A DNA stretch of 63,296 nucleotides, the filler included. It is 11 parts of 11 records of this genome, joined end to end, with 100 filler letters (N's around TTAATTAATTAA, not from the genome) between each part and the next. Parts side by side here need not be neighbours in the genome. Positions count along the whole stretch, not along the records: positions 58,296 to 63,296 come from SRR31147125_125519; 10 more parts are not named here. One strand, 5' to 3'. The first letter of the stretch is position 1. Each line of letters opens with the position of its first letter. A program made the translations under genes and the position numbers. The notes beneath the pieces were generated by a model that ran no database searches, had not been told where the DNA came from, and was given only the letters and a program-made list of their open reading frames with translations. Shown piece after piece: positions 2,337 through 62,578 of the stretch.

Positions 2337-4040
2337 ATGGCGACTATTTCAAGACAGGCCTATGCTGAAATGTTCGGCCCCACCACCGGAGACAAGGTGC
2401 GGCTTGGTGATACAGAACTTTTTGCTGAGGTCGAGAGAGATTATACCGTATACGGTGATGAGGTTAAGTTCGGCGGCGGTAAGGTTATCCGTGACGGTAT
2501 GGGGCAATGTCAGGAGTGTGGGGATAAGGTTGTGGATGTGGTGGTTACCAACGCGACCATTATCGATCATAGCGGCATAATAAAAGCCGATATCGGCATC
2601 AAGGGCGGCCGTATTGTAGGAATCGGCAAGGCCGGCAACCCCGATGTGCAGCCGGATGTGGATATTCTCGTCGGTCCCGGCACCGAAGCAATCGCCGGTG
2701 AGGGTGCAATAGTTACAGCCGGCGGGATCGATTCGCATATTCATTTCATTTGTCCGCAGCAGATTGATGACGCGCTCATGTCCGGTGTTACGACCATGCT
2801 CGGCGGTGGTACCGGCCCTGCAACCGGGACAAACGCGACGACCTGCACCCCGGGGGCGTGGAATATCCATCGAATGCTGCAGGCTTCCGATGAACTGCCG
2901 ATGAATCTCGGCTATCTGGCCAAGGGGAATGGCTCTCTGACACCGGCGCTGGACGAACAGATTCTTGCAGGGGCAATGGGGCTGAAGCTTCATGAGGACT
3001 GGGGCACCACTCCTGCAGCCATAGACGCCTGCCTGAAAGTTGCGGATAATCGCGATGTGCAGGTCGCTATCCATACTGATACGCTCAATGAGTCCGGCTT
3101 TGTCGAAAATACCATCGAAGCGATCGCGGGGCGTACGATCCATACGTATCATACAGAAGGGGCCGGTGGGGGACATGCTCCGGATATTATAAAAGCCTGC
3201 GGTCTTGCCAACGTGCTGCCTTCCTCCACAAATCCGACCCGTCCCTACACCGTCAACACCGTCGCTGAGCATCTTGACATGTTGATGGTCTGCCATCATC
3301 TCGATTCCAAGATTGCGGAAGATGTGGCCTTTGCCGAATCGCGTATCCGCCGTGAGACTATTGCAGCGGAAGACATCCTCCATGATCTCGGCGCGTTTTC
3401 GATGATCGCTTCGGATTCCCAGGCCATGGGCCGGGTGGGGGAAGTGGTGATCAGAACCTGGCAGACAGCGCATAAAATGAAAGTGCAGCGGGGTGCGCTT
3501 ACCGAAGAGTCAGGTGAAAATGACAACCTTCGGATTCGCCGCTATATCGCTAAATACACGATAAATCCGGCAATCGCGCACGGTATTTCCCATGAAGTCG
3601 GTTCCGTTGAAGTAGGGAAACTTGCTGATCTGGTACTCTGGAAACCACAGTTTTTTGGTGCCAAACCGGACCTTGTCATTAAAGGGGGGATGATTGTTGC
3701 CGCCCCGATGGGGGATCCGAACGCTTCGATTCCTACTCCGCAGCCGGTACACTACCGTCCGATGTTCGGAGCATTTGGAGGAAGCCGTCATGCAACAAGC
3801 ATGACATTTGTTTCCAAGGCCGCTCTTGCCGCGGATATTGGGGCCCAACTCAGTCTCAGAAGTATGATCGGAGTGGCCAAAGGGTGTCGCTCTGTATGCA
3901 AGAAGGATATGATTTTAAATGATTATCAGCCGGTGATAGATGTGGATCCTCAAACCTATGAGGTGCGCGCGGACGGACAGTTGCTGGTCTGCGAGCCTGC
4001 CGAGGTACTGCCACTGGCCCAGCGCTATTTTCTGTTCTAG
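2337..4040 (+). CDS. ureC: Urease alpha (catalytic) subunit
   Basis: [59 protein letters not shown]; all Ni-ligand motifs intact. Confidence 0.99.
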
Positions 4041-40910: not shown

Positions 40911-41010
40911 NNNNNNNNNNNNNNNNNNNNNNNNNNNNNNNNNNNNNNNNNNNNTTAATTAATTAANNNNNNNNNNNNNNNNNNNNNNNNNNNNNNNNNN
41001 NNNNNNNNNN

Positions 41011-41780
41011 GAGAACTGGGAAGGTGTGCTCCAGGAGCCCGTAGTATTATTCATATAGTAAAGGGCCCCCGAATTTGTATAAAATGCAATATGCAAATTA
41101 CCATCGCTATCGGATATGATCGAGGGATGGCCGCCTTCGGACAAACTGTCCATGGCAGTCCAGCTTGAACCATTATATTTTGAAAGCCAGATATTGCCGT
41201 CATGTGAACCGAGAAAAAAGAGAGAATCATCCGGTGTTATTGCTGTGGCAAAATATTGTGATGTCAGTGTATTTGCGATCCTGTTTCCGGCATCATTTGT
41301 TTGGTAATAAACATAGGAGCCATTATTATCTTCCTGGGCGCAAACATGCAAGCCGTTTTCACTGTCAATCTCAACGGCACATTCGTGATAATGGTCCCAG
41401 CCCATTCCGACGCTTTTTGTCCAGGATACTGATGTGCTTTCGATATTATCGTAGGTATAGATATTGTGTCCATTGGACCAATTATAATAGCGTGCGGCAA
41501 TAGCTGTGAATCCGTATTTATTGACAGCCAATGTGGGCACATAAATTTGCTCTTCATTTGCAATACGGATCTGTTCAGCCCAGTCGCCACTTTGGTTTGT
41601 GACGTATTGCAGATCCTCGTCGTCGGTTGTAAAGGCAATATGAAGATAACCCATGGAATCGGAAGCAACGACAGGACGATCAGCATTGGTTCCATAACCC
41701 ACAGTTGTATAGGTCCAGCTTGCTGCAGATAATAGAAGGATACTTTGAAGACAAATAAACAGGAACTTGATCCGTTTCAT
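41011..41780 (-). CDS. Exported beta-repeat (propeller/BNR-like) protein (3' truncated)
   Basis: Signal peptide; repeats such as SDSMGYLHIAF, DSENGLHV, SDSDGNLHIAFY..YMNNTTGSWS. Confidence 0.7.
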
Positions 41781-41813
41781 GGGACACACTCCTGGAGTAT
41801 TATTTAACGCAGA

Positions 41814-43007
41814 TCAAAATGCCGATGTTAATCCAAGTATGAACATATTATTTGTGTTCTCGATATCGTAGATATACTCTCCGACAAGCCTCAGATTTCT
41901 GGCTAGCAAATAGGTGCCGCTAAAAGCAATGGTATGGTAATCGCTTGCATCCCATCCTGAATCGATATAGTTGTATAAGAGCGTCCAATAAGTATTTGAT
42001 CGATCATATTTTGGAGCGAATACAAGCTCTGCAACAATAGCTTGAGTTTGCACACCGAATGCGCTTTCTACACCACCGGTAAGAAATTCAGGATTACTAT
42101 CGATACGTTTTAAATACTGCCCCGTAAAGGCAAATTTACCAAGATTGATCACAAGGTCCGGACCATAATAGGTTACTGTGTTGGATAGCCCCGGCGTCAG
42201 CACCTCATCCACGACCTTATCTTCTTTACCGCGATAATAAAACCCACCGATGCTGATGTGTTCACCGATACCCTGAGCGATCCTTAGCATGAAGTTTTTG
42301 TAAGGATCGGCATCAAAACGCTTATCGACACCGGCTTCCGGGATGCCGTTACCGGTTGTGATCGTTGCAATGATATCGGTACCGGTTTTGTCGATGCCAT
42401 ATGCCAGGGCAATACCCCGGTCATAGGCAAGATTGATATTTGAATCTCCGATCTTGACTTTGTAGGCATGATAATCTTCGTAGGTCAAGCGAAGCTCACG
42501 TTTCATAAGAGGGTCGCAGGTTTGGAACTGGCCGACTAAAATGTCCAGATTAGATTTAAATACATTATCAAAATGAATGTATGCGTCTTCCAAGCCAGCT
42601 ACTTCGCCACGCTCAAAGAGATAAAAATACATGTAATAGCCGATATTTTTATACAGCGTTCCACCACTGAGGAGCTTGACGCCATAGGGTGCCTGTAGAT
42701 CCAGTTTTACATCACCCCCGGTTTCGGCCAGTCCATAGACATCAAATCTAACCGCAAAGGGAAATACTTTGTTTAACCACAATTTATCATCACCCGCCGA
42801 GATATAATCACGAGGTTTTTCTTCCTCGGGCTCAATAAAGCCATTACCGGCAAATTCATCACCATAATCCTTTAATCTTGGGAAGGGATCGTGACAGGTG
42901 CTACAGGAATATTTGTAGCGTCGCGCGAATGCGGGAACAGCAAATGCGGTTTGTGCAATAAGTATAAAGACAATACAGATCAATAACACTCGGGTCATTC
43001 GTTTCAT
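41814..43007 (-). CDS. Cyc2-like monoheme cytochrome-porin fusion
   Basis: Signal peptide then VPAFARRYKYSCSTCHDPFPRLKDYGDEFAGNGF; amphipathic beta strands; C-terminal Phe (LTSAF); AAGGAG RBS before ATG 43007. Confidence 0.8.
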   Translation of the reverse strand: MKRMTRVLLICIVFILIAQTAFAVPAFARRYKYSCSTCHDPFPRLKDYGDEFAGNGFIEPEEEKPRDYISAGDDKLWLNKVFPFAVRFDVYGLAETGGDVKLDLQAPYGVKLLSGGTLYKNIGYYMYFYLFERGEVAGLEDAYIHFDNVFKSNLDILVGQFQTCDPLMKRELRLTYEDYHAYKVKIGDSNINLAYDRGIALAYGIDKTGTDIIATITTGNGIPEAGVDKRFDADPYKNFMLRIAQGIGEHISIGGFYYRGKEDKVVDEVLTPGLSNTVTYYGPDLVINLGKFAFTGQYLKRIDSNPEFLTGGVESAFGVQTQAIVAELVFAPKYDRSNTYWTLLYNYIDSGWDASDYHTIAFSGTYLLARNLRLVGEYIYDIENTNNMFILGLTSAF

Positions 43008-43017
43008 GACAGTCTCC

Positions 43018-44355
43018 TTAATCATAGACTTCAATAGTCGTTGATGCTTCATTTATCAAAACCAATTCACTTTCATCTTCTGGGGCATTCAGAAAATCAG
43101 CCACCGGTTTCACTAATCGCTGATAGTAAAGTTTTGCTGTTATCGTTACGTCACCGAAGGCAATATCATCAGGCATTTCCCAGGTGAAATGTTCCAACTT
43201 GGTTTCCCTCGGCCCAATTCGGTAATCCACACCGAAAGAACGCGTATTCCATTGTTGAATGGTCATGATGCCATTTTCATCAAAATAGGGCATGCGGAAA
43301 ATACGATTACCAAGAGGAACGCCATCTCTTTGCACACCTTTAAAATTTTCAATGCCCAGTGGGAAACCCATATCCACATAAGCCAATTCATCGGAAGCAA
43401 CCGTATATTCCTCACCCTCGAATCCTTTCAGGTCTACAGGAAGATGGTATTCCTGACCATCGGCATCAACAGCTCGGACATCCAGCCACAAGATACGGTC
43501 TTCCACAGAACCGGAGGGGATCTTGTGCCCCGCTTTGGCATTGAAAAGCTCAACTTGAAACACGACCGCGCCGTCATATGGTATTTCGCTTTCGTCGGCA
43601 TGAATGGATACTTCAATAGCGCTTTTCAATTTTGCTTCATTGTGTGCGCCAAGAAATACATGCTGGGCAACCATACCTTCTTCTGCCATGGGAGCGCTTC
43701 GTCCCGGAGCTTTGGGCATATGGCAGACAAAACAGGGCACACCTTGTTCACCATAAGGTCCTTCAGCCCACTCGATCTGTGTGGATTTCACATAAAGACC
43801 GAAGGGATTTTGCTCATTGTGGCATGATCCGCAGTAATCGGCAATTGTGTAAACATCGTTGAATTCAGTAATGTGGTGGGGTGATTCAAGTCCTTCTTTC
43901 GCACCGTACTTGGTTCTGCCGGGCTCAGAGACCCAATTGAAATTTACCGGATCACCATTTATGCCGGTAATGCTGTGACAGAGATCACAACTGACGCTTT
44001 CATTGGCTCTGGAATTTTCTGATGGTCGAGGTGGAGGAACATCACCTGCAAGATAAGCAAGAGGTGCGTGACAACCGTTACATCCATCTGCCGCCGCCTT
44101 GAACTGGGGATCTTTTTCACCATGAGGAACAGCCAATTCCCAGTATTCGATCTCATCCCAGTGATGAGTGTAGGCCTTGGACATCATGGCTTGTGACCAT
44201 TGTTGATATATGCGTGTATGGCAGCTTTTGCAACTTTCAGGTTTTTCAAAATCGGAGTATTTGCGAGTGCCCATAGCATGTTCACCGCTTGCATTTTCTG
44301 CGGCAAAACAAAGAATGAATGCAAAACACATGATTAGCGATCGTGCAAGTTTCAT
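43018..44355 (-). CDS. Periplasmic pentaheme c-type cytochrome (c554-like N-terminus)
   Basis: Signal peptide; CKSCH, CNGCH, CDLCH, CGSCH, CFVCH; C-terminal GHKIPSG..LWL domain. Confidence 0.9.
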   Translation of the reverse strand: MKLARSLIMCFAFILCFAAENASGEHAMGTRKYSDFEKPESCKSCHTRIYQQWSQAMMSKAYTHHWDEIEYWELAVPHGEKDPQFKAAADGCNGCHAPLAYLAGDVPPPRPSENSRANESVSCDLCHSITGINGDPVNFNWVSEPGRTKYGAKEGLESPHHITEFNDVYTIADYCGSCHNEQNPFGLYVKSTQIEWAEGPYGEQGVPCFVCHMPKAPGRSAPMAEEGMVAQHVFLGAHNEAKLKSAIEVSIHADESEIPYDGAVVFQVELFNAKAGHKIPSGSVEDRILWLDVRAVDADGQEYHLPVDLKGFEGEEYTVASDELAYVDMGFPLGIENFKGVQRDGVPLGNRIFRMPYFDENGIMTIQQWNTRSFGVDYRIGPRETKLEHFTWEMPDDIAFGDVTITAKLYYQRLVKPVADFLNAPEDESELVLINEASTTIEVYD

Positions 44356-51216: not shown

Positions 51217-51296
51217 CGGGATTCAGCCGGACCTGGAGATTAAGCTCTCCTTTGGCCCGGCTGATTGATCCAACCCGCGTATCCCGGTCCTGGGGC

Positions 51297-52801
51297 TTAC
51301 AACGGGGTATTGGGCACCAGATCCCAGATCCCGCAGGGGCAGGCCCCTTTACAGAACCCGCACCCGATGCATTTATCCGGATCTGCCTTATATTCAAATC
51401 CCGTCTTGGTTTCCACCCGGGAAATGGCGACTTCAGGGCAGACGGCCACGCAGATGCCGCAGTCCCGGCAATTGCCGCAGGAGGCGCATTCCTGGCCGCA
51501 CCCGTCCAGGCCGTCCCTGTTCCTGTCCATATCTTTTCTGGGATCGTAATAGGTCAGGGAAACCCGTGCCTTGTCGATCACCGGGGGCAGTCCGCCTTTA
51601 TCCGGGACTTTGCCGTCAATGATCCGGTCAATGGATTCAGCCGCCCGCTTGCCGGCGCCGATGGCATCGGTAAGCAGGCCGACACCCACGGCATCGCCGA
51701 TGGCAAAGACCCGGGAATCCGAGGTTCTGCCCGTACCGTCCACACGAATGAATCCGTTGTCCAGGGCCAGTTCGTCCCCGAGGAAGCCAAGGTCCGGCAT
51801 ATCCCCGATGGAGAGCACCACGGTATCCGCCGGCAGCAGCTCCCCGTTCTCCAGGACCACCCCTTTTTTGGTGATCTCCCGGGTAAAGACAGGCCACCGG
51901 AATTTTGCCCCGCATTCCTGGGCATCCTCTTTTTCCTTGCCGAATGCCGCAGGCTTCTGGACATCAATGAGGGTGATATCCCGGGCGCCCAGGCGGTGGG
52001 CTTCCGTGGCCACGTCGCATCCCACATTTCCGGCGCCGATAATCACCATGGTCTTGCCGGGTTTAACCTTGCCCGATTTGGCGGTTTCCAGAAAATCATT
52101 GGCATAAACCGCCAGTTCAATGCCCTTTACCGGCAGGGTGCGGGGCTTTTTGGCCCCGGCCGCCACAATGGTAAAATCATAATCATTCTTAATTTTATAG
52201 AACCGGTCCGCATCAATGGTCTCTTCCGTGCGGATATCACCGATAAAAGACCTCACCCGGTCAAGTTCCGCCTTCAAGGTATCTGCCGGCACCCTGGATT
52301 CGGGAATCACCGATGCCATTTTCCCGCCCACGGCCTTGCCCGTCTCAAATACCGTGGGGGTATGGCCTTTGAGGGTCAGGTGCCAGGCTGCGGAAATCCC
52401 GCCGGCCCCGGCCCCGATCACCGCCACTTTTTTCCGGCTCTTTTTTGCGGGCTTGGGGGGTTTGACATCCTGGCCGGCCCGGCCCAGGAGGCGCACGTCA
52501 ATGGGGCTCATATAGGAAAGGTGCCGGGTGCAGGAGGCCATGCAGGGAGAGGGGCATAAATGCCCGCAGACCGTGGCCGGAAACGGGGTATAGTTCAGGC
52601 CCATGGCAACGGCCTCCTCGATATTTTCCGCCCGGACCATGGCCCAGCGCTCCTGGACCGGAATCCCCGTGGGGCAGGCTGCCTGGCAGGGAGAGATATA
52701 TTTTCCCTGCTCCCATACCGGTACATAGCGGCGGTACTCTCCCTTGGTGATAAGGGGGACGATCTCTTTTTCAGTCTCCTGGAGATCACCGATGAGCCCC
52801 C
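51297..52801 (-). CDS. GltD-like FAD/NAD(P) oxidoreductase with C-terminal 2x[4Fe-4S] (5' truncated)
   Basis: Frame open to the contig edge; SPCQAACP, VCGHLCPSPC, VIGAGAGG, IIGAGNVGCD, FAIGD, CRDCGICVAVCP, CIGCGFCKGACP. Confidence 0.9.
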
Positions 52802-58532: not shown

Positions 58533-58562
58533 AAAAAAAACGGGCCCGGAAAACCGGGCCCG
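58533..58562 (-). terminator. Rho-independent terminator of the multiheme cytochrome gene
   Basis: Minus strand CGGGCCCGG-TTTT-CCGGGCCCG followed by T8. Confidence 0.85.
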
Positions 58563-58588: not shown

Positions 58589-61500
58589 TTATGGAATATC
58601 ATCTGTTACTGTGAAGGTAAATGACGCTGTTCCCAAAATAACAGTCTCAGTCGTCGGGTTACCCCACATATCAGTTCCTTCGATAACATCTTCTGCACGG
58701 ACGATAATGTTGTACTCATAGTTACCACCGTTCAGATACATGTCATAGGCACGGAACTGATGTGTAGCACCTTGTGCCGTCAGGTTGGTACTGGCGTTGG
58801 TGACAACTTCGCGATCTCCGTCACCCCAGATGATATAGAGTTGATCAGCTTGGCCATCAACCTCATCACCTGTTGGCAGGTTATTAAAGACGACATATTG
58901 AGCAGTCGAAACGCCTGTACCTTCTTCAGTATCCGGTACAAAGCCTATGGCCTCTGAAATTGCCGGTGTAACCACAACGTCTTGATGGACTTGGGCCAGC
59001 TGGCCTTCCTCATCAATAACCTTGAGAGTCACTGTCCAGGTTCCGACAGCATCAAAGGTTTTGGCAACTGTCGCGCCTTCAAGCGTCTCATCAGCTGTGT
59101 CGTTGCAGATCCAGCCGTAAGAAACGGTACCAGCGTTGACAGTTTCGTCAGCAATCAGATCAACCGTGCTACCAACTTCAACAGTTGCAGGAACACTTGA
59201 AATGGTTGCTACTGGAGGCTGACCAATACCGAAATCGGCCGGTGTCAGTGCTTCCAGAGGACCTGCATCATCAGGATCGACGAACAGAGTATTCAGATAG
59301 TCAACCCACTCATCACGCGTGTTGAATTCACCGTCGAAGCCAGGGTTACCTAATTCGTACTCAGATTCGTAAATCGCTGTCCATGGGTTAGACTTATAAG
59401 CCATGGAAACCAGCTTCAGAGGTCCAGCGGCACTCAGAGGATGCAGACGAATGGTGTAACCTGTGTCTGCAGTAAAGGTGATACCACCGGAACCATTATC
59501 AGAAATGGTGAATTCAAAATCGGTGGCGAAAGTACCCAGGTTAGCGAGCAGGCCTGGAATACCATCGTTGGTTGTCAGTGCATCACCATCATCAACCGGG
59601 ATGTTAGCACTGAACTTCTTTGTCCGAGTAATAACATCAGTACCGTCATTAACTTGAACCTTGATGAACCATACGCGCTCATCACCACCCAGACCAATCA
59701 CATCAGAACTGGTGAAGGTTGTTCCGAAGTCAGCACTTGTCATGAAGGTATCTTCATAAACAGTTTTGGCGATTGGCAGTTCTTCTGTTGTCTTGTATGG
59801 AATTTCAGCTGTAGCTGCATCATTATCGTGGTCGTAAGTGATCGCTGAATCAGCTGTTATTACTTGAGAAGCCAGGGAACGCTTAGCAAAACGGTCCTTG
59901 ACATTCGGATGCATATCAGTCGCCTGGGTCATACCGTTGACCTTGGTAAAGGCAACGACGTCATTATCCCAGTAGATTGTGGTTGCATCACCAGTCGTCT
60001 TGATCGAGCCATTCCAGAAGTTTGACGCACTGGAGTGACAATCGAGACATGGGTTAGCGTTAACAACAGCACCTTCCGGATCGTTCCCACGACCGGAACC
60101 CCAAGCCATAGCGGCTGGAGAAACACCATGCTGATCTTTAAAGGCAACATGCATCATGGACAGCTTGACATCAGAAGTCGGATCGCCCGCTTGTGGTCCA
60201 GCAACTCCGTAAACCCAGGTATCGAGAACAGTGTTCAGTGCATCGATCCGTGCATTGATGAGGGCAGGAGTGATAACAGCGGTACCCAACTGATCGTCAT
60301 AATTATCACCAGTCAGGGATGTCCAGCCATTGTCTTCGTTCATCTTGTTGACCTGGGTCATCAAGATCGCGTCCATACCGGCACCGCGGCCGTCTCTGTT
60401 CGCGTCAAAGGTGGTGTTGCCACCGTTATCACGGAAGAACATGGTGTTCAGGTAGCTGGCACGGATCAGTTTGCCACCAACCCAGGACAGACCCGAATTA
60501 TCAGTCATGTCTTCTTTAATAACCGCGTCACCTTCATGGTCAGTCAAACGACCGGCAAGGTCATTACCGGAGGCATCAACCATCGGGTTCCCGTTGTTGT
60601 GCCAGGTACCGTCATCCACTTTACGGCTGTGACAGGTGCTACAAGCCATCAGGTCGATGTGGCTGATCGAAGGAGTTCCGTCAAGAGCAACACCGTCGCC
60701 CTTAACAGCCTGAACGATATTGGCAGTCAAACCGTAAGCAGCGTGAGCAGCGTTCGGGTTTGGTGCACCGTAGGCTTGGCCTGTTTCTACATAAGTGTCC
60801 GGCTCAAGATCGCCATCGGTATCAACGTACTCACCAAAACCAGTTCCGTTAATATGACAGTCGGCGCAGGATTTGAATGCGGCCTTGTCATTGGCATTGT
60901 AGAGACTGCTGAACGGTGCAGCGCCCTTGGCAGGATCATGACCGAGGAGGCCGGAACCTTGCGTTGCGTAACCATCGGCTCCGAGATAATCGTAACCACC
61001 CGGTTGAGCTGCGGTCGGCTTACGCTCGTGACAGCCCATGCAACCGAGGCTGACGTGAACTTCGTACTGACCATCCACCGGAATCACTTCTGTGTGAGTT
61101 ACGTTACCATCCGCATCCGCATGGCTGTCGCTTGGATCGTAGTATTTTTGCGTGTAAGTTCCAGGCCAGTTATCACCACGCTTCTTCCAGTCAACAGCAG
61201 GCTTGCTCATGTGACAGAAGGCGCAGTTTTCAGATGCCGGCAGGCCGGCGATGTTGTCGTTAAACCACTCGCCAGGAATTGCATAGGTACCGGTATAGTC
61301 ATAAGTCAGCCCAGTATGACCAGAGGTATAAACGATATCTGTAGCTAACATGCTTGGATCATCGGTAATGTAGTTAACGGTTGTTCCGTAACCTGCTGGG
61401 GCTGCGTCAAAAGTAGTTCCAGCAGCATTATCGATTGTCGCGTTCCAAGTCAAATCGTTCTCAGTTGCAAAACCGGCGGCAACGGCGCGGGTCGCGTCGA

Positions 61501-62386
61501 TCTTGGCACGACGAAGCAGGTAAGTCCGCTCGCCATAGTTGTAGCCTGGCAGGTGACAGAGCAGACAGTCCATCTCCATAACACCGGTATTGGCGTAGTC
61601 GATGTACATGGCTTCCTGCTCGTTCCCATCGCGGTCAACATCATAGGTGTCGATAAAGAAGTTAAATGCGGTCATGTCATCAACAGACACGGCACCTTGC
61701 GTATTTCCAAGACCCTGCGCAGCAGCATCAGGACCGGTGGTCAGGTTACGCAGAGGAGTTCTGGCATCCAGGTTGGAGAATGGCACGTATTCCATACCAC
61801 CGCCACCAACGTGACATTCACCACAATCCATGATAACGCCGGCAACAGAGATGTCGACTTTTTCACGGAAGGTCACAACATCAACGTCAGTCGTGGAGAT
61901 GTCTGCGTAATCGTAAATTGTCCAACTATTTGAATTAACTTCAGTGTACTGTGCATTCAAGGCATCATAAGAGCTCATGCCGCTCGGACCGTTGAAAAGT
62001 CTCGCCAACTGGCGAGCCGAAGGCGGTCACCACTTACCCAAGTGGCCGGGGCTCTGAACCCAGTTCTTACCCTTAGCAGCGACGCCGCTCTTAAAGCTGT
62101 TTGGGGAGTCCGGGTTGAAGGGGTTCCAACCGAAGAACTGGTTGGCACCAATCTGTGCATGGTAAGAGTGTTTCTCAATCGAATCGTAAGTGTGGCAGCT
62201 ACCACAGGTGTTTTTTGCACTGTAGGCAATGTTACTACCTGCAGGAATTGGATTATCATTGGCATCCATCAATTGCACTGGCGGATGGTGATCGGCAGCA
62301 AAAGTGCTACCAACAAAACCGACCGTAAACAAACAGGCCAGCAGTGCTGTTAGCAATAAGTGCCCTTTAAATTTCATCGTTCTCAT
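58589..62386 (-). CDS. Secreted octaheme c-type cytochrome selenoprotein (~1265 aa, Sec at codon 120) with C-terminal PKD-like domains
   Basis: ORFs 62027-62515 and 58589-62008 are in the same frame, separated only by TGA 62029-62027 (..SPGHLGKW-U-PPSARQLARLF..). AGGAG RBS and signal peptide; CGSCH, CGECH, CLLCH, CAFCH, CMGCH, CADCH, CSTCH, CLDCH; PKD-like motifs GTWTVTLKV and WGDG. Confidence 0.88.
62001..62016 (-). promoter_or_regulatory. SECIS-like hairpin after the in-frame UGA
   Basis: mRNA: UGA-CCGCCUUCGG-CUCGCC-AGUU-GGCGAG; perfect stem starting at +11 with GU in the apical loop. Confidence 0.7.
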
Positions 62387-62578
62387 TTCAATTTTCTCCT
62401 TTAATATAAAACTCTCAAAATAATCTTTTCTCTCAAGAAGCAAATTGACCTTATGGAACCTCCTTGTTTCTTTTGCGTTGTTTGTCTTTTTGTCGTCCTT
62501 GCGTGTTGGGGGCACGATTTAAGTTCGACAAAACGACAGGTGGTAAAAAGACAGAAAGAGCCACTGGCCTGAACAATG

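Follow-up and report, generated by a model that had tools for sequence, protein, structure and literature searches.

An octaheme cytochrome gene interrupted by a single in-frame TGA: a probable selenocysteine-dependent reductase distantly related to octaheme tetrathionate reductase

Near the end of the 63,296-nucleotide (nt) stretch of DNA analyzed here (the window, in which eleven parts of eleven records of one genome are joined end to end), the minus strand raises the question of whether two open reading frames (ORFs) separated by one TGA are two genes, a damaged gene, or one gene in which UGA is translated. The ORF at 62027..62515, with an ATG at 62386, and a 1139-residue ORF at 58589..62008 share a frame, and only the TGA at 62029-62027 lies between them, in agreement with an earlier note on this DNA that had proposed a single gene split at one in-frame TGA. 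Read through, the gene spans 58589..62386 (minus strand) with 1265 codons and a TAA stop, and its 1265-residue product has selenocysteine (Sec, U) as residue 120 within WVQSPGHLGKW-U-PPSARQLARLF. We consider it probable that the locus is one gene for a secreted octaheme Sec cytochrome with a heme core related to octaheme tetrathionate reductase (OTR), and that its product uses Sec to reduce sulfur or selenium compounds.

Homologues are collinear with the window gene along its entire length, and coding conservation continues on both sides of the UGA (alignment A2). The earlier note had suggested asking whether homologues carry TGA or Cys at codon 120 (62027..62029, minus strand, on the Sec reading), and they do: TGA is conserved across homologues, with Cys, Asp and other residues in a minority. 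A pooled set of 89 stop-bearing sites comprised 82 distinct 57-nt segments, in which the codon was TGA in 82/82 and never TAA or TAG. Among genomes from the order of Malonomonas rubra, 11/233 matched the window protein, and 15 of the 17 matches had exactly one TGA, at the same column; the two TGA-less matches were an Asp-bearing paralogue and a match limited to residues 172-255, downstream of the column. An even sample of the phylum gave matches in 15/401 genomes, with one TGA in 16/19 matches. A metagenome scan found 174 relatives, from which 77 loci were kept; the column was TGA in 71, TGT in one, and outside the search pattern in five, for which tblastn gave one stop (codon unchecked), one Ser, one Cys, one His and one locus without the region.

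A search with phmmer using residues 31-119 against 1.84 billion cluster representatives returned 57 matches. The W119 column is reached by 31 of them, and 24 of these terminate precisely at it (...G.W); the other seven continue with Cys (three) or with Asp, Ser-Ser-Asp, Gly or Asn (one each). A protein search returned 110 homologues. Four of these carry the N-terminal segment, two having Asp at the column (P0007, P0008) and two Cys (P0058, P0105), and the N-terminal G.W column was not found in the remaining 106, many of which begin right after the stop, typically at ...ARLF. RefSeq entries for homologues are named 'PKD domain-containing protein' and begin downstream of the UGA. The prediction that gene callers would cut the gene in two was thus accurate, since most database entries of homologues show exactly that split. 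In all, Cys was seen at the Sec column in P0058, P0105, P0127, P0157, L102 (TGT) and L113.

Bacterial selenocysteine insertion sequence (SECIS) elements are hairpins close 3' of the UGA with a G in the apical loop. A SECIS-like hairpin lies at 62001..62016 (minus strand), with 62016-62011 paired to 62006-62001 around an AGUU loop at 62010-62007. This is the CUCGCC-AGUU-GGCGAG element that had been described close 3' of the UGA, and its first nucleotide is indeed the 11th after that codon. The segment made up of the UGA and the next 42 nt has a folding energy of -18.4 kcal/mol (z = -2.62), with 4/200 shuffles equally stable. Across the 82 sequences, the 6-base-pair (bp) stem is paired in 91.9% of cells, and compensatory double changes occur in three of the six stem pairs (42 cells). 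The covariation score was 0.245 as against 0.089 for shuffled alignments; none of 500 shuffles reached 0.245, and slid registers gave at most 0.154. A 16-sequence genome set agreed on the covariation, and a few members with an RQFAR variant have the hairpin in a shifted register, as read by eye. The apical loop is AGUU or AGGU, and its G is invariant (CAG in 82/82).

Because the conserved peptide R-Q-L/V-A also dictates the inner stem, synonymous sites were examined, with the remainder of the same genes serving as the codon background. Gln was CAG in 82/82 hairpins (81.8% in the rest of the genes), Leu was UUG in 66/66 (10.4%), Ala was GCG in 73/76 (15.4%), Arg was CGC in 71/82 (37.1%) and Val was GUG in 11/11 (23.7%); the sequences are related, so that binomial p-values for codon use are overstated, while the contrast itself is plain. 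In the four codons ahead of the hairpin every synonymous form is used, as for Ser (TCG 18, TCC 27, TCT 22, TCA 14). Comparison of the homologues shows that the hairpin is under selection at the RNA level. L102, the sole Cys form with DNA, has Gln CAA, an AACA loop and a weakened stem. The family provides a clean example of a SECIS superimposed on conserved peptide sequence. Rfam models at gathering thresholds identified neither a SECIS nor another RNA at the site.

The machinery for Sec was sought in relatives that carry the gene. A tRNA-Sec scored above cut-off in all three relatives searched (G001, G002 and G003), and in five carriers (the same three, G189 and G144) selA was above cut-off in 5/5, selB in 4/5 and selD in 4/5; the selD of relatives itself contains one TGA. 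Within the window TGA terminates 9/32 long ORFs, and therefore the genetic code is standard. Some findings count against reading the codon as Sec. The stem core CGCC/GGCG is forced by R-Q-x-A, and an Asp-bearing copy (L028) retains the 6-bp hairpin with an AGCU loop, so the hairpin alone is no proof; in addition, distant homologues have Ser, His, Gly or Asn at the Sec column. With these points weighed, TGA codon 120 almost certainly encodes selenocysteine.

The start of the gene is marked by a Shine-Dalgarno-like AGGAG at 62396..62400 (minus strand), 9 nt upstream of the ATG at 62386 as read from the sequence, and the N-terminal start MRTMKFKGH is common to the window gene and locus L012. A signal peptide was predicted by eye at residues 1-30 (62297..62386, minus strand), with cleavage likely after TFA; A31 and H34 are invariant in the family alignment A2, and the conserved A-x-A/HP site supports the prediction. 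The heme domain (60035..62206, minus strand) contains all eight of the CxxCH motifs that had been counted in the read-through protein. They lie at residues 61, 188, 274, 388, 449, 507, 582 and 780, corresponding on the minus strand to 62206-62192, 61825-61811, 61567-61553 and 61225-61211 (motifs 1-4), and to 61042-61028, 60868-60854, 60643-60629 and 60049-60035 (motifs 5-8). A PKD domain occupies residues 1056-1138 (58973..59221, minus strand; Pfam PF18911 and PF00801), with an E-value of 2.5e-9 when these residues were scanned alone and 33.6-37.5 bits against a Pfam cut-off of 27; collagenase PKD domains in the PDB also match the region (E 0.005). The earlier note had two PKD-like domains at the C-terminus. 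This one stands, and the second is not supported. The C-terminal 127 residues (58592..58972, minus strand) have no Pfam match at E<=1; they do include a WGDGD motif, which we take to resemble the PKD signature. Similarly, of the several DxDxDG-like motifs that had been claimed, two are strict (DVDRDG at 249 and DANRDG at 661) and two more hold only on a looser definition.

Kinship of the heme core with known systems was assessed by family models, profile alignment and structure. An NCBIfam scan at E<=0.1 gave no match to ExtKL (NF040886), the GSU2204 family (NF041027) or OTR (TIGR04315), which are the cytochrome-type families tabulated in a 2026 selenoproteome review (PMC13188914). When alignment A2 was compared with an OTR-family alignment by hhalign, the two matched at a probability of 97.3% (E 2e-11, 121 columns), and residues 381-613, which hold hemes 4-7, mapped onto OTR hemes 4-7. 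A VIA fold search of 48,161 chains returned a single chain at Z>=2, Shewanella OTR (1sp3_A), although the match is weak (Z 4.3, root-mean-square deviation 4.5 Angstrom, 240 residues aligned, 20% identity). Foldseek against the PDB gave nothing significant (best E 2.7), and neither did the A2 profile against PDB sequences, OTR and MccSep included. The guess of an OTR-like fold is therefore borne out in the form of distant homology.

Both families have eight collinear CxxCH motifs, and by eye they are alike at heme 2 (CxxCHVG.G), heme 3 (DCLxCH) and heme 8 (CLDCH); Sec and Cys forms occur in both. Membership is another matter, as the TIGR04315 cut-off is 375 bits and the window protein has no match even at E<=0.1, and no loci of the window family are among the matches listed for TIGR04315 in the Malonomonas order. 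The heme domain is ~800 residues long in the window protein and ~440 in OTR, and the window protein, unlike OTR, adds ~450 C-terminal residues that include the PKD domain. The OTR Cys/Sec lies 10 residues before heme 2 (NNF-C/U-xSI), whereas the window Sec lies 68 residues before it. The two also differ in gene frequency within the same order, with OTR in 123/233 genomes and the window family in 11/233. Judged from these alignments, the heme core is a distant, insertion-rich and much enlarged relative of OTR and not an OTR member, and the Sec site of the family is its own, in a loop for which no OTR counterpart was detected. The family could serve as a test of independent Sec recruitment at two different sites in the OTR superfamily.

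The surroundings of the Sec residue are strongly conserved. The Sec loop, residues 107-126 (62009..62068, minus strand), reads K107-x-W-x-Q-x2-G-H115-x-G-x-W-U120-P-P-S-x-R-Q and is conserved in alignments A2 and A3, with K107, W109, Q111, G114, H115, G117, W119, P121-P122-S123, R125 and Q126 at 95-100%. In a sister subfamily (…AMYGKW-U-SPSLRQVANF…) Met takes the place of H115. Exchange between His and Met is typical of distal heme ligands, so H115 may be one.

A further point of comparison is MccSep (GSU2937-2936), a periplasmic, tetrameric pentaheme cytochrome that is a Sec-dependent polysulfide reductase and reduces polysulfide and selenite via U325 beside a His/Cys heme (PMC13510729). MccSep/ExtKL and the window protein are both secreted multiheme c-type cytochromes in which one UGA encodes Sec and is closely followed by a SECIS; both are split by gene callers, occur in sulfur- and metal-reducing Desulfobacterota and share U-P-x-x-x-R. 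MccSep has five hemes as against eight, and carries its Sec close to the C-terminus, inside an Ig-like domain, whereas that of the window protein is near the N-terminus between hemes 1 and 2. By analogy with MccSep and through its kinship with OTR, Sec120 may act as a reductive nucleophile, albeit at another position and within another scaffold.

The mechanism we propose is as follows. SelB and tRNA-Sec would decode UGA 120, aided by the 6-bp AGUU-loop hairpin 11 nt downstream, and the mature secreted c-type cytochrome would have ~1235 residues and eight hemes, with the heme core followed by beta-rich C-terminal parts including the one PKD domain. U120, five residues past the putative distal-ligand His, would place a strongly nucleophilic selenolate beside heme 1 or 2, from which it could attack S-S or Se-O bonds in polysulfide or S0-derived sulfur, tetrathionate or selenite. 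The heme chain would then re-reduce the Sec. Judging from relatives, electrons might be supplied by an outer-membrane module of cytochromes and a beta-barrel, and the PKD part might tether the enzyme to a solid substrate or to the surface of the cell. The signal peptide, the PKD domain and the conduit-like neighbors of the gene in relatives suggest that the enzyme is placed at the surface or outside the cell.

Several observations sit uneasily with this explanation. The OTR Cys/Sec column pairs with the invariant D148 and not with U120, although the pairing is itself weak (probability 37%, 21 columns). The conserved His residues outside the heme motifs (H34, H73, H76, H115, H444, H548, H576 and H617) are numerous enough for bis-His ligation of all hemes. 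No conserved extra Cys comparable to the heme-ligating C239 of MccSep was seen in residues 31-640, and a Sec/Cys pair of the MccSep type is therefore not supported. The AlphaFold2 (AF2) model of residues 31-640, built from a 133-row alignment, has a predicted local distance difference test (pLDDT) score of 74.6 and a predicted template modeling score of 0.82 (a first model from 17 sequences had a pLDDT of 37.7), and its confidence is poor near the Sec, with pLDDT <50 at model residues 91-94. The window gene itself has no adjacent conduit cluster within 0.9 kilobases (kb) upstream and stands alone between terminator-like sites. Lastly, the surrounding genome looks Desulfobacterales-like by sequence comparison, and the closest homologues of the gene are from Desulfuromonadales.

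These points bear on the alternative that has fared best, namely that the protein does contain Sec but serves extracellular electron transfer as a cytochrome and is no enzyme, with Sec120 as an axial heme ligand or a redox-tuning residue that sets a very low potential. The column holds U, C, H, D or S across homologues, all of them metal-ligating residue types, and there are weak matches to MtrC/MtrF domain II-IV and cytochrome c7; the PKD domain and the conduit-like clusters that the gene adjoins in relatives also fit such a role. Like MtrC and OmcA, the family consists of large secreted multiheme proteins, next to porin-cytochrome modules in relatives. The likeness ends there, as the matches fall below cut-off (PF22113, 25.1 against 30 bits; TIGR03507, 15.5 against 209 bits) and the conserved lipobox was not seen in the window family. 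We know of no MtrC/OmcA-type cytochrome that is a selenoprotein. Sec is costly and usually reserved for catalysis, the eight conserved non-motif His would suffice as distal ligands, and the heme core has its homologues in OTR, which is a catalytic family. We therefore regard a purely electron-transferring role as unlikely, if worth keeping in view, and continue to favor a Sec-dependent reductase.

A two-gene arrangement, with a ~12-kDa monoheme protein ending at the UGA and a 1139-residue heptaheme protein starting from TTG 62008, is what standard gene callers give in most entries. It is very improbable on other grounds. No combination of a Shine-Dalgarno-like sequence and a start codon was seen by eye ahead of TTG 62008, as had been claimed of the downstream ORF, no start after the stop is conserved, and the called starts vary between database entries. 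The downstream part would lack a signal peptide, yet its seven heme motifs need export. Uninterrupted Cys and Asp homologues exist, and thus the homologues are not always two separate genes. The invariance of the TGA, never replaced by TAA or TAG in 82/82 segments, and the selection on the hairpin at the RNA level likewise argue against a true stop.

It is harder still to credit that the protein belongs to the ExtKL/MccSep family as a long member. Their likeness is local to the Sec, with GH-x5-U-P-T-P-x-R in MccSep and GH-x4-U-P-P-S-x-R here. NF040886 does not match, and BLASTP against the true ExtKL homologue of G189 (…GHAIPDGUPTPNR…) gave a best E of 0.024 that rested on CxxCH motifs, so that the protein is distinct from ExtKL, which the earlier note had called a smaller pentaheme. 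True ExtKL genes lie at separate loci in G189 and G091, and heme number, Sec position and domain order differ.

That the TGA arose by an error of sequencing or assembly, or by a nonsense mutation that recently made the gene a pseudogene, has practically nothing left to recommend it, because the codon is kept across 82 distinct sequences drawn from numerous genomes and metagenomes, and a contig from run X1 (40,469 nt, word depth 23) that spans 61500-62450 with 16 substitutions and 4 single-base indels has no difference at TGA 62027-62029 or in the hairpin, although X1 is probably the source sample and its agreement is not independent support.

In all four genome loci examined (G189, G001, G223 and G091), the gene lies downstream of one conserved cluster. 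This encodes a 12-13-heme cytochrome, a 4-heme cytochrome, an NHL-repeat lipoprotein, a 5-heme lipoprotein, a ~670-residue protein that lacks a Pfam match and whose C-terminus resembles a beta-barrel, another NHL protein and a 10-11-heme cytochrome. Near the cluster are a PAS/HisKA_3 kinase and a LuxR-type regulator, and often a Sec cytochrome of the second subfamily. Of 35 metagenome loci that have 2.2 kb or more of upstream sequence, 14 have as their nearest upstream gene on the same strand one with at least eight CxxCH motifs. A broader proposal may be entertained, tentatively and as a possibility only, that the Sec cytochromes form a widespread, systematically mis-annotated family of OTR-derived octaheme enzymes, located at the surface or outside the cell, fed by an outer-membrane cytochrome conduit, anchored by PKD-type domains and reducing insoluble or extracellular sulfur or selenium species (S0, polysulfide, selenite) via the Sec of an N-terminal loop. 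If true, it would supply the step outside the cell for which the MccSep model of sulfur respiration, being periplasmic, does not account.

The window gene is arranged differently. A terminator-like hairpin at 58541..58562 (minus strand; nine G-C pairs, then T8) follows directly after its stop, and a further terminator-like site lies upstream of the gene at 62912-62893; with such sites at both ends, the gene looks like a stand-alone transcription unit. An ABC transporter is encoded downstream on the opposite strand. The SurE protein of the window is 36-47% identical to those of Desulfuromonadales carriers and 60-63% identical to Desulfosarcina and Desulfatitalea entries, and the closest cytochrome homologues in the genome collection are from a Desulfuromusa sp. 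and another Deltaproteobacteria metagenome-assembled genome, with 54-57% identity in the best segment and 61-69% over the N-terminal 260 residues. These differing affinities may reflect a patchy distribution or horizontal transfer.

Multiheme Sec cytochromes were only recently (2026) shown to take part in sulfur respiration, and that work leaves extracellular sulfur handling open (PMC13510729). A literature search for selenocysteine or selenoprotein multiheme or PKD cytochromes found only the ExtKL/MccSep work, besides unrelated papers, and not the present family, which supplementary tables may list. Selenocysteine, PKD and stop codons are not mentioned in the main text of a 2024 census of Desulfuromonadia cytochromes, nor in that of a 2025 paper on electron-transfer pathways. 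The window protein would represent a second family of Sec cytochromes, much larger and without detectable homology to MccSep. As nearly all database entries are split, the signal peptide, the first heme and the Sec are missing from annotations, cytochrome censuses and selenoproteome counts.

Further observations were made on the family and its relatives. The first heme motif is variable in alignments A2, A3 and A6, being CX2CH in most members and CX3CH to CX8CH in many (for example CFGPAGTTGCH), and this variation hints, at the level of the alignments, at a special heme 1. Fourteen of the substitutions between the X1 contig and the window, with two pairs of compensating single-base indels, fall within 61904-61973 (70 nt, residues ~139-161), which is a linker variable between strains. 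Distant N-terminal fragments with the pattern …DDYF.DGR.W..S.GMYGKW (P0134, P0148, P0151, P0154 and P0160) end exactly at the W, and the Sec module may thus head additional cytochrome families; in P0135, a 16-heme protein, the module is internal with Gly at the Sec column. An OTR-family gene of Malonomonas (L126, G001:C33:14700-17000) has an in-frame TGA at the conserved Cys (GKVNALNNF-U-VSI…), and about ten further OTR-family matches among those listed for the order have one TGA within open frames of 700-840 residues. Malonomonas rubra also has ~28 kb (L030/L031, G001:C19:230000-268000) in which a tandem array of three Sec copies occurs together with an Asp copy, a Sec copy of the second subfamily and a 23-heme cytochrome, with a conduit-like cluster adjoining. 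The organism is described as fermentative (PMC11492766).

Elsewhere in the window, a scan for other TGA-interrupted genes found no second selenoprotein; its best candidate, 40959-43052, proved to be two genes, and no tRNA gene was found in the window. The region 40959-44355, which along the stretch is 14 kb away from the Sec cytochrome, has the look of a small porin-cytochrome-like module. It comprises, on the minus strand, a 445-residue multiheme cytochrome at 43018-44355 (Pfam c554/c7, with MtrC II-IV below cut-off), a 412-residue protein at 41814-43052 with one N-terminal CxxCH and an outer-membrane-barrel-like end (...TSAF), and after it a signal-peptide protein that runs into masked N near 40959. 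Stretches of N occur at ~58.2-58.3 kb and ~40.96 kb, and G+C per 3 kb ranges from 36% (30-33 kb) to 63% (6-9 kb). An Rfam match to 5' ureB sRNA at 2490-2772 (minus strand, 77 bits), antisense within urease alpha (2337-4040, plus strand), probably reflects coding conservation of urease and not a real sRNA. A 447-residue pyridine-nucleotide disulfide oxidoreductase with a C-terminal 4Fe-4S dicluster domain is encoded at 51297-52640 (minus strand), and opposite it lies an ORF of equal length, 51252-52559, for which Pfam gave no match.

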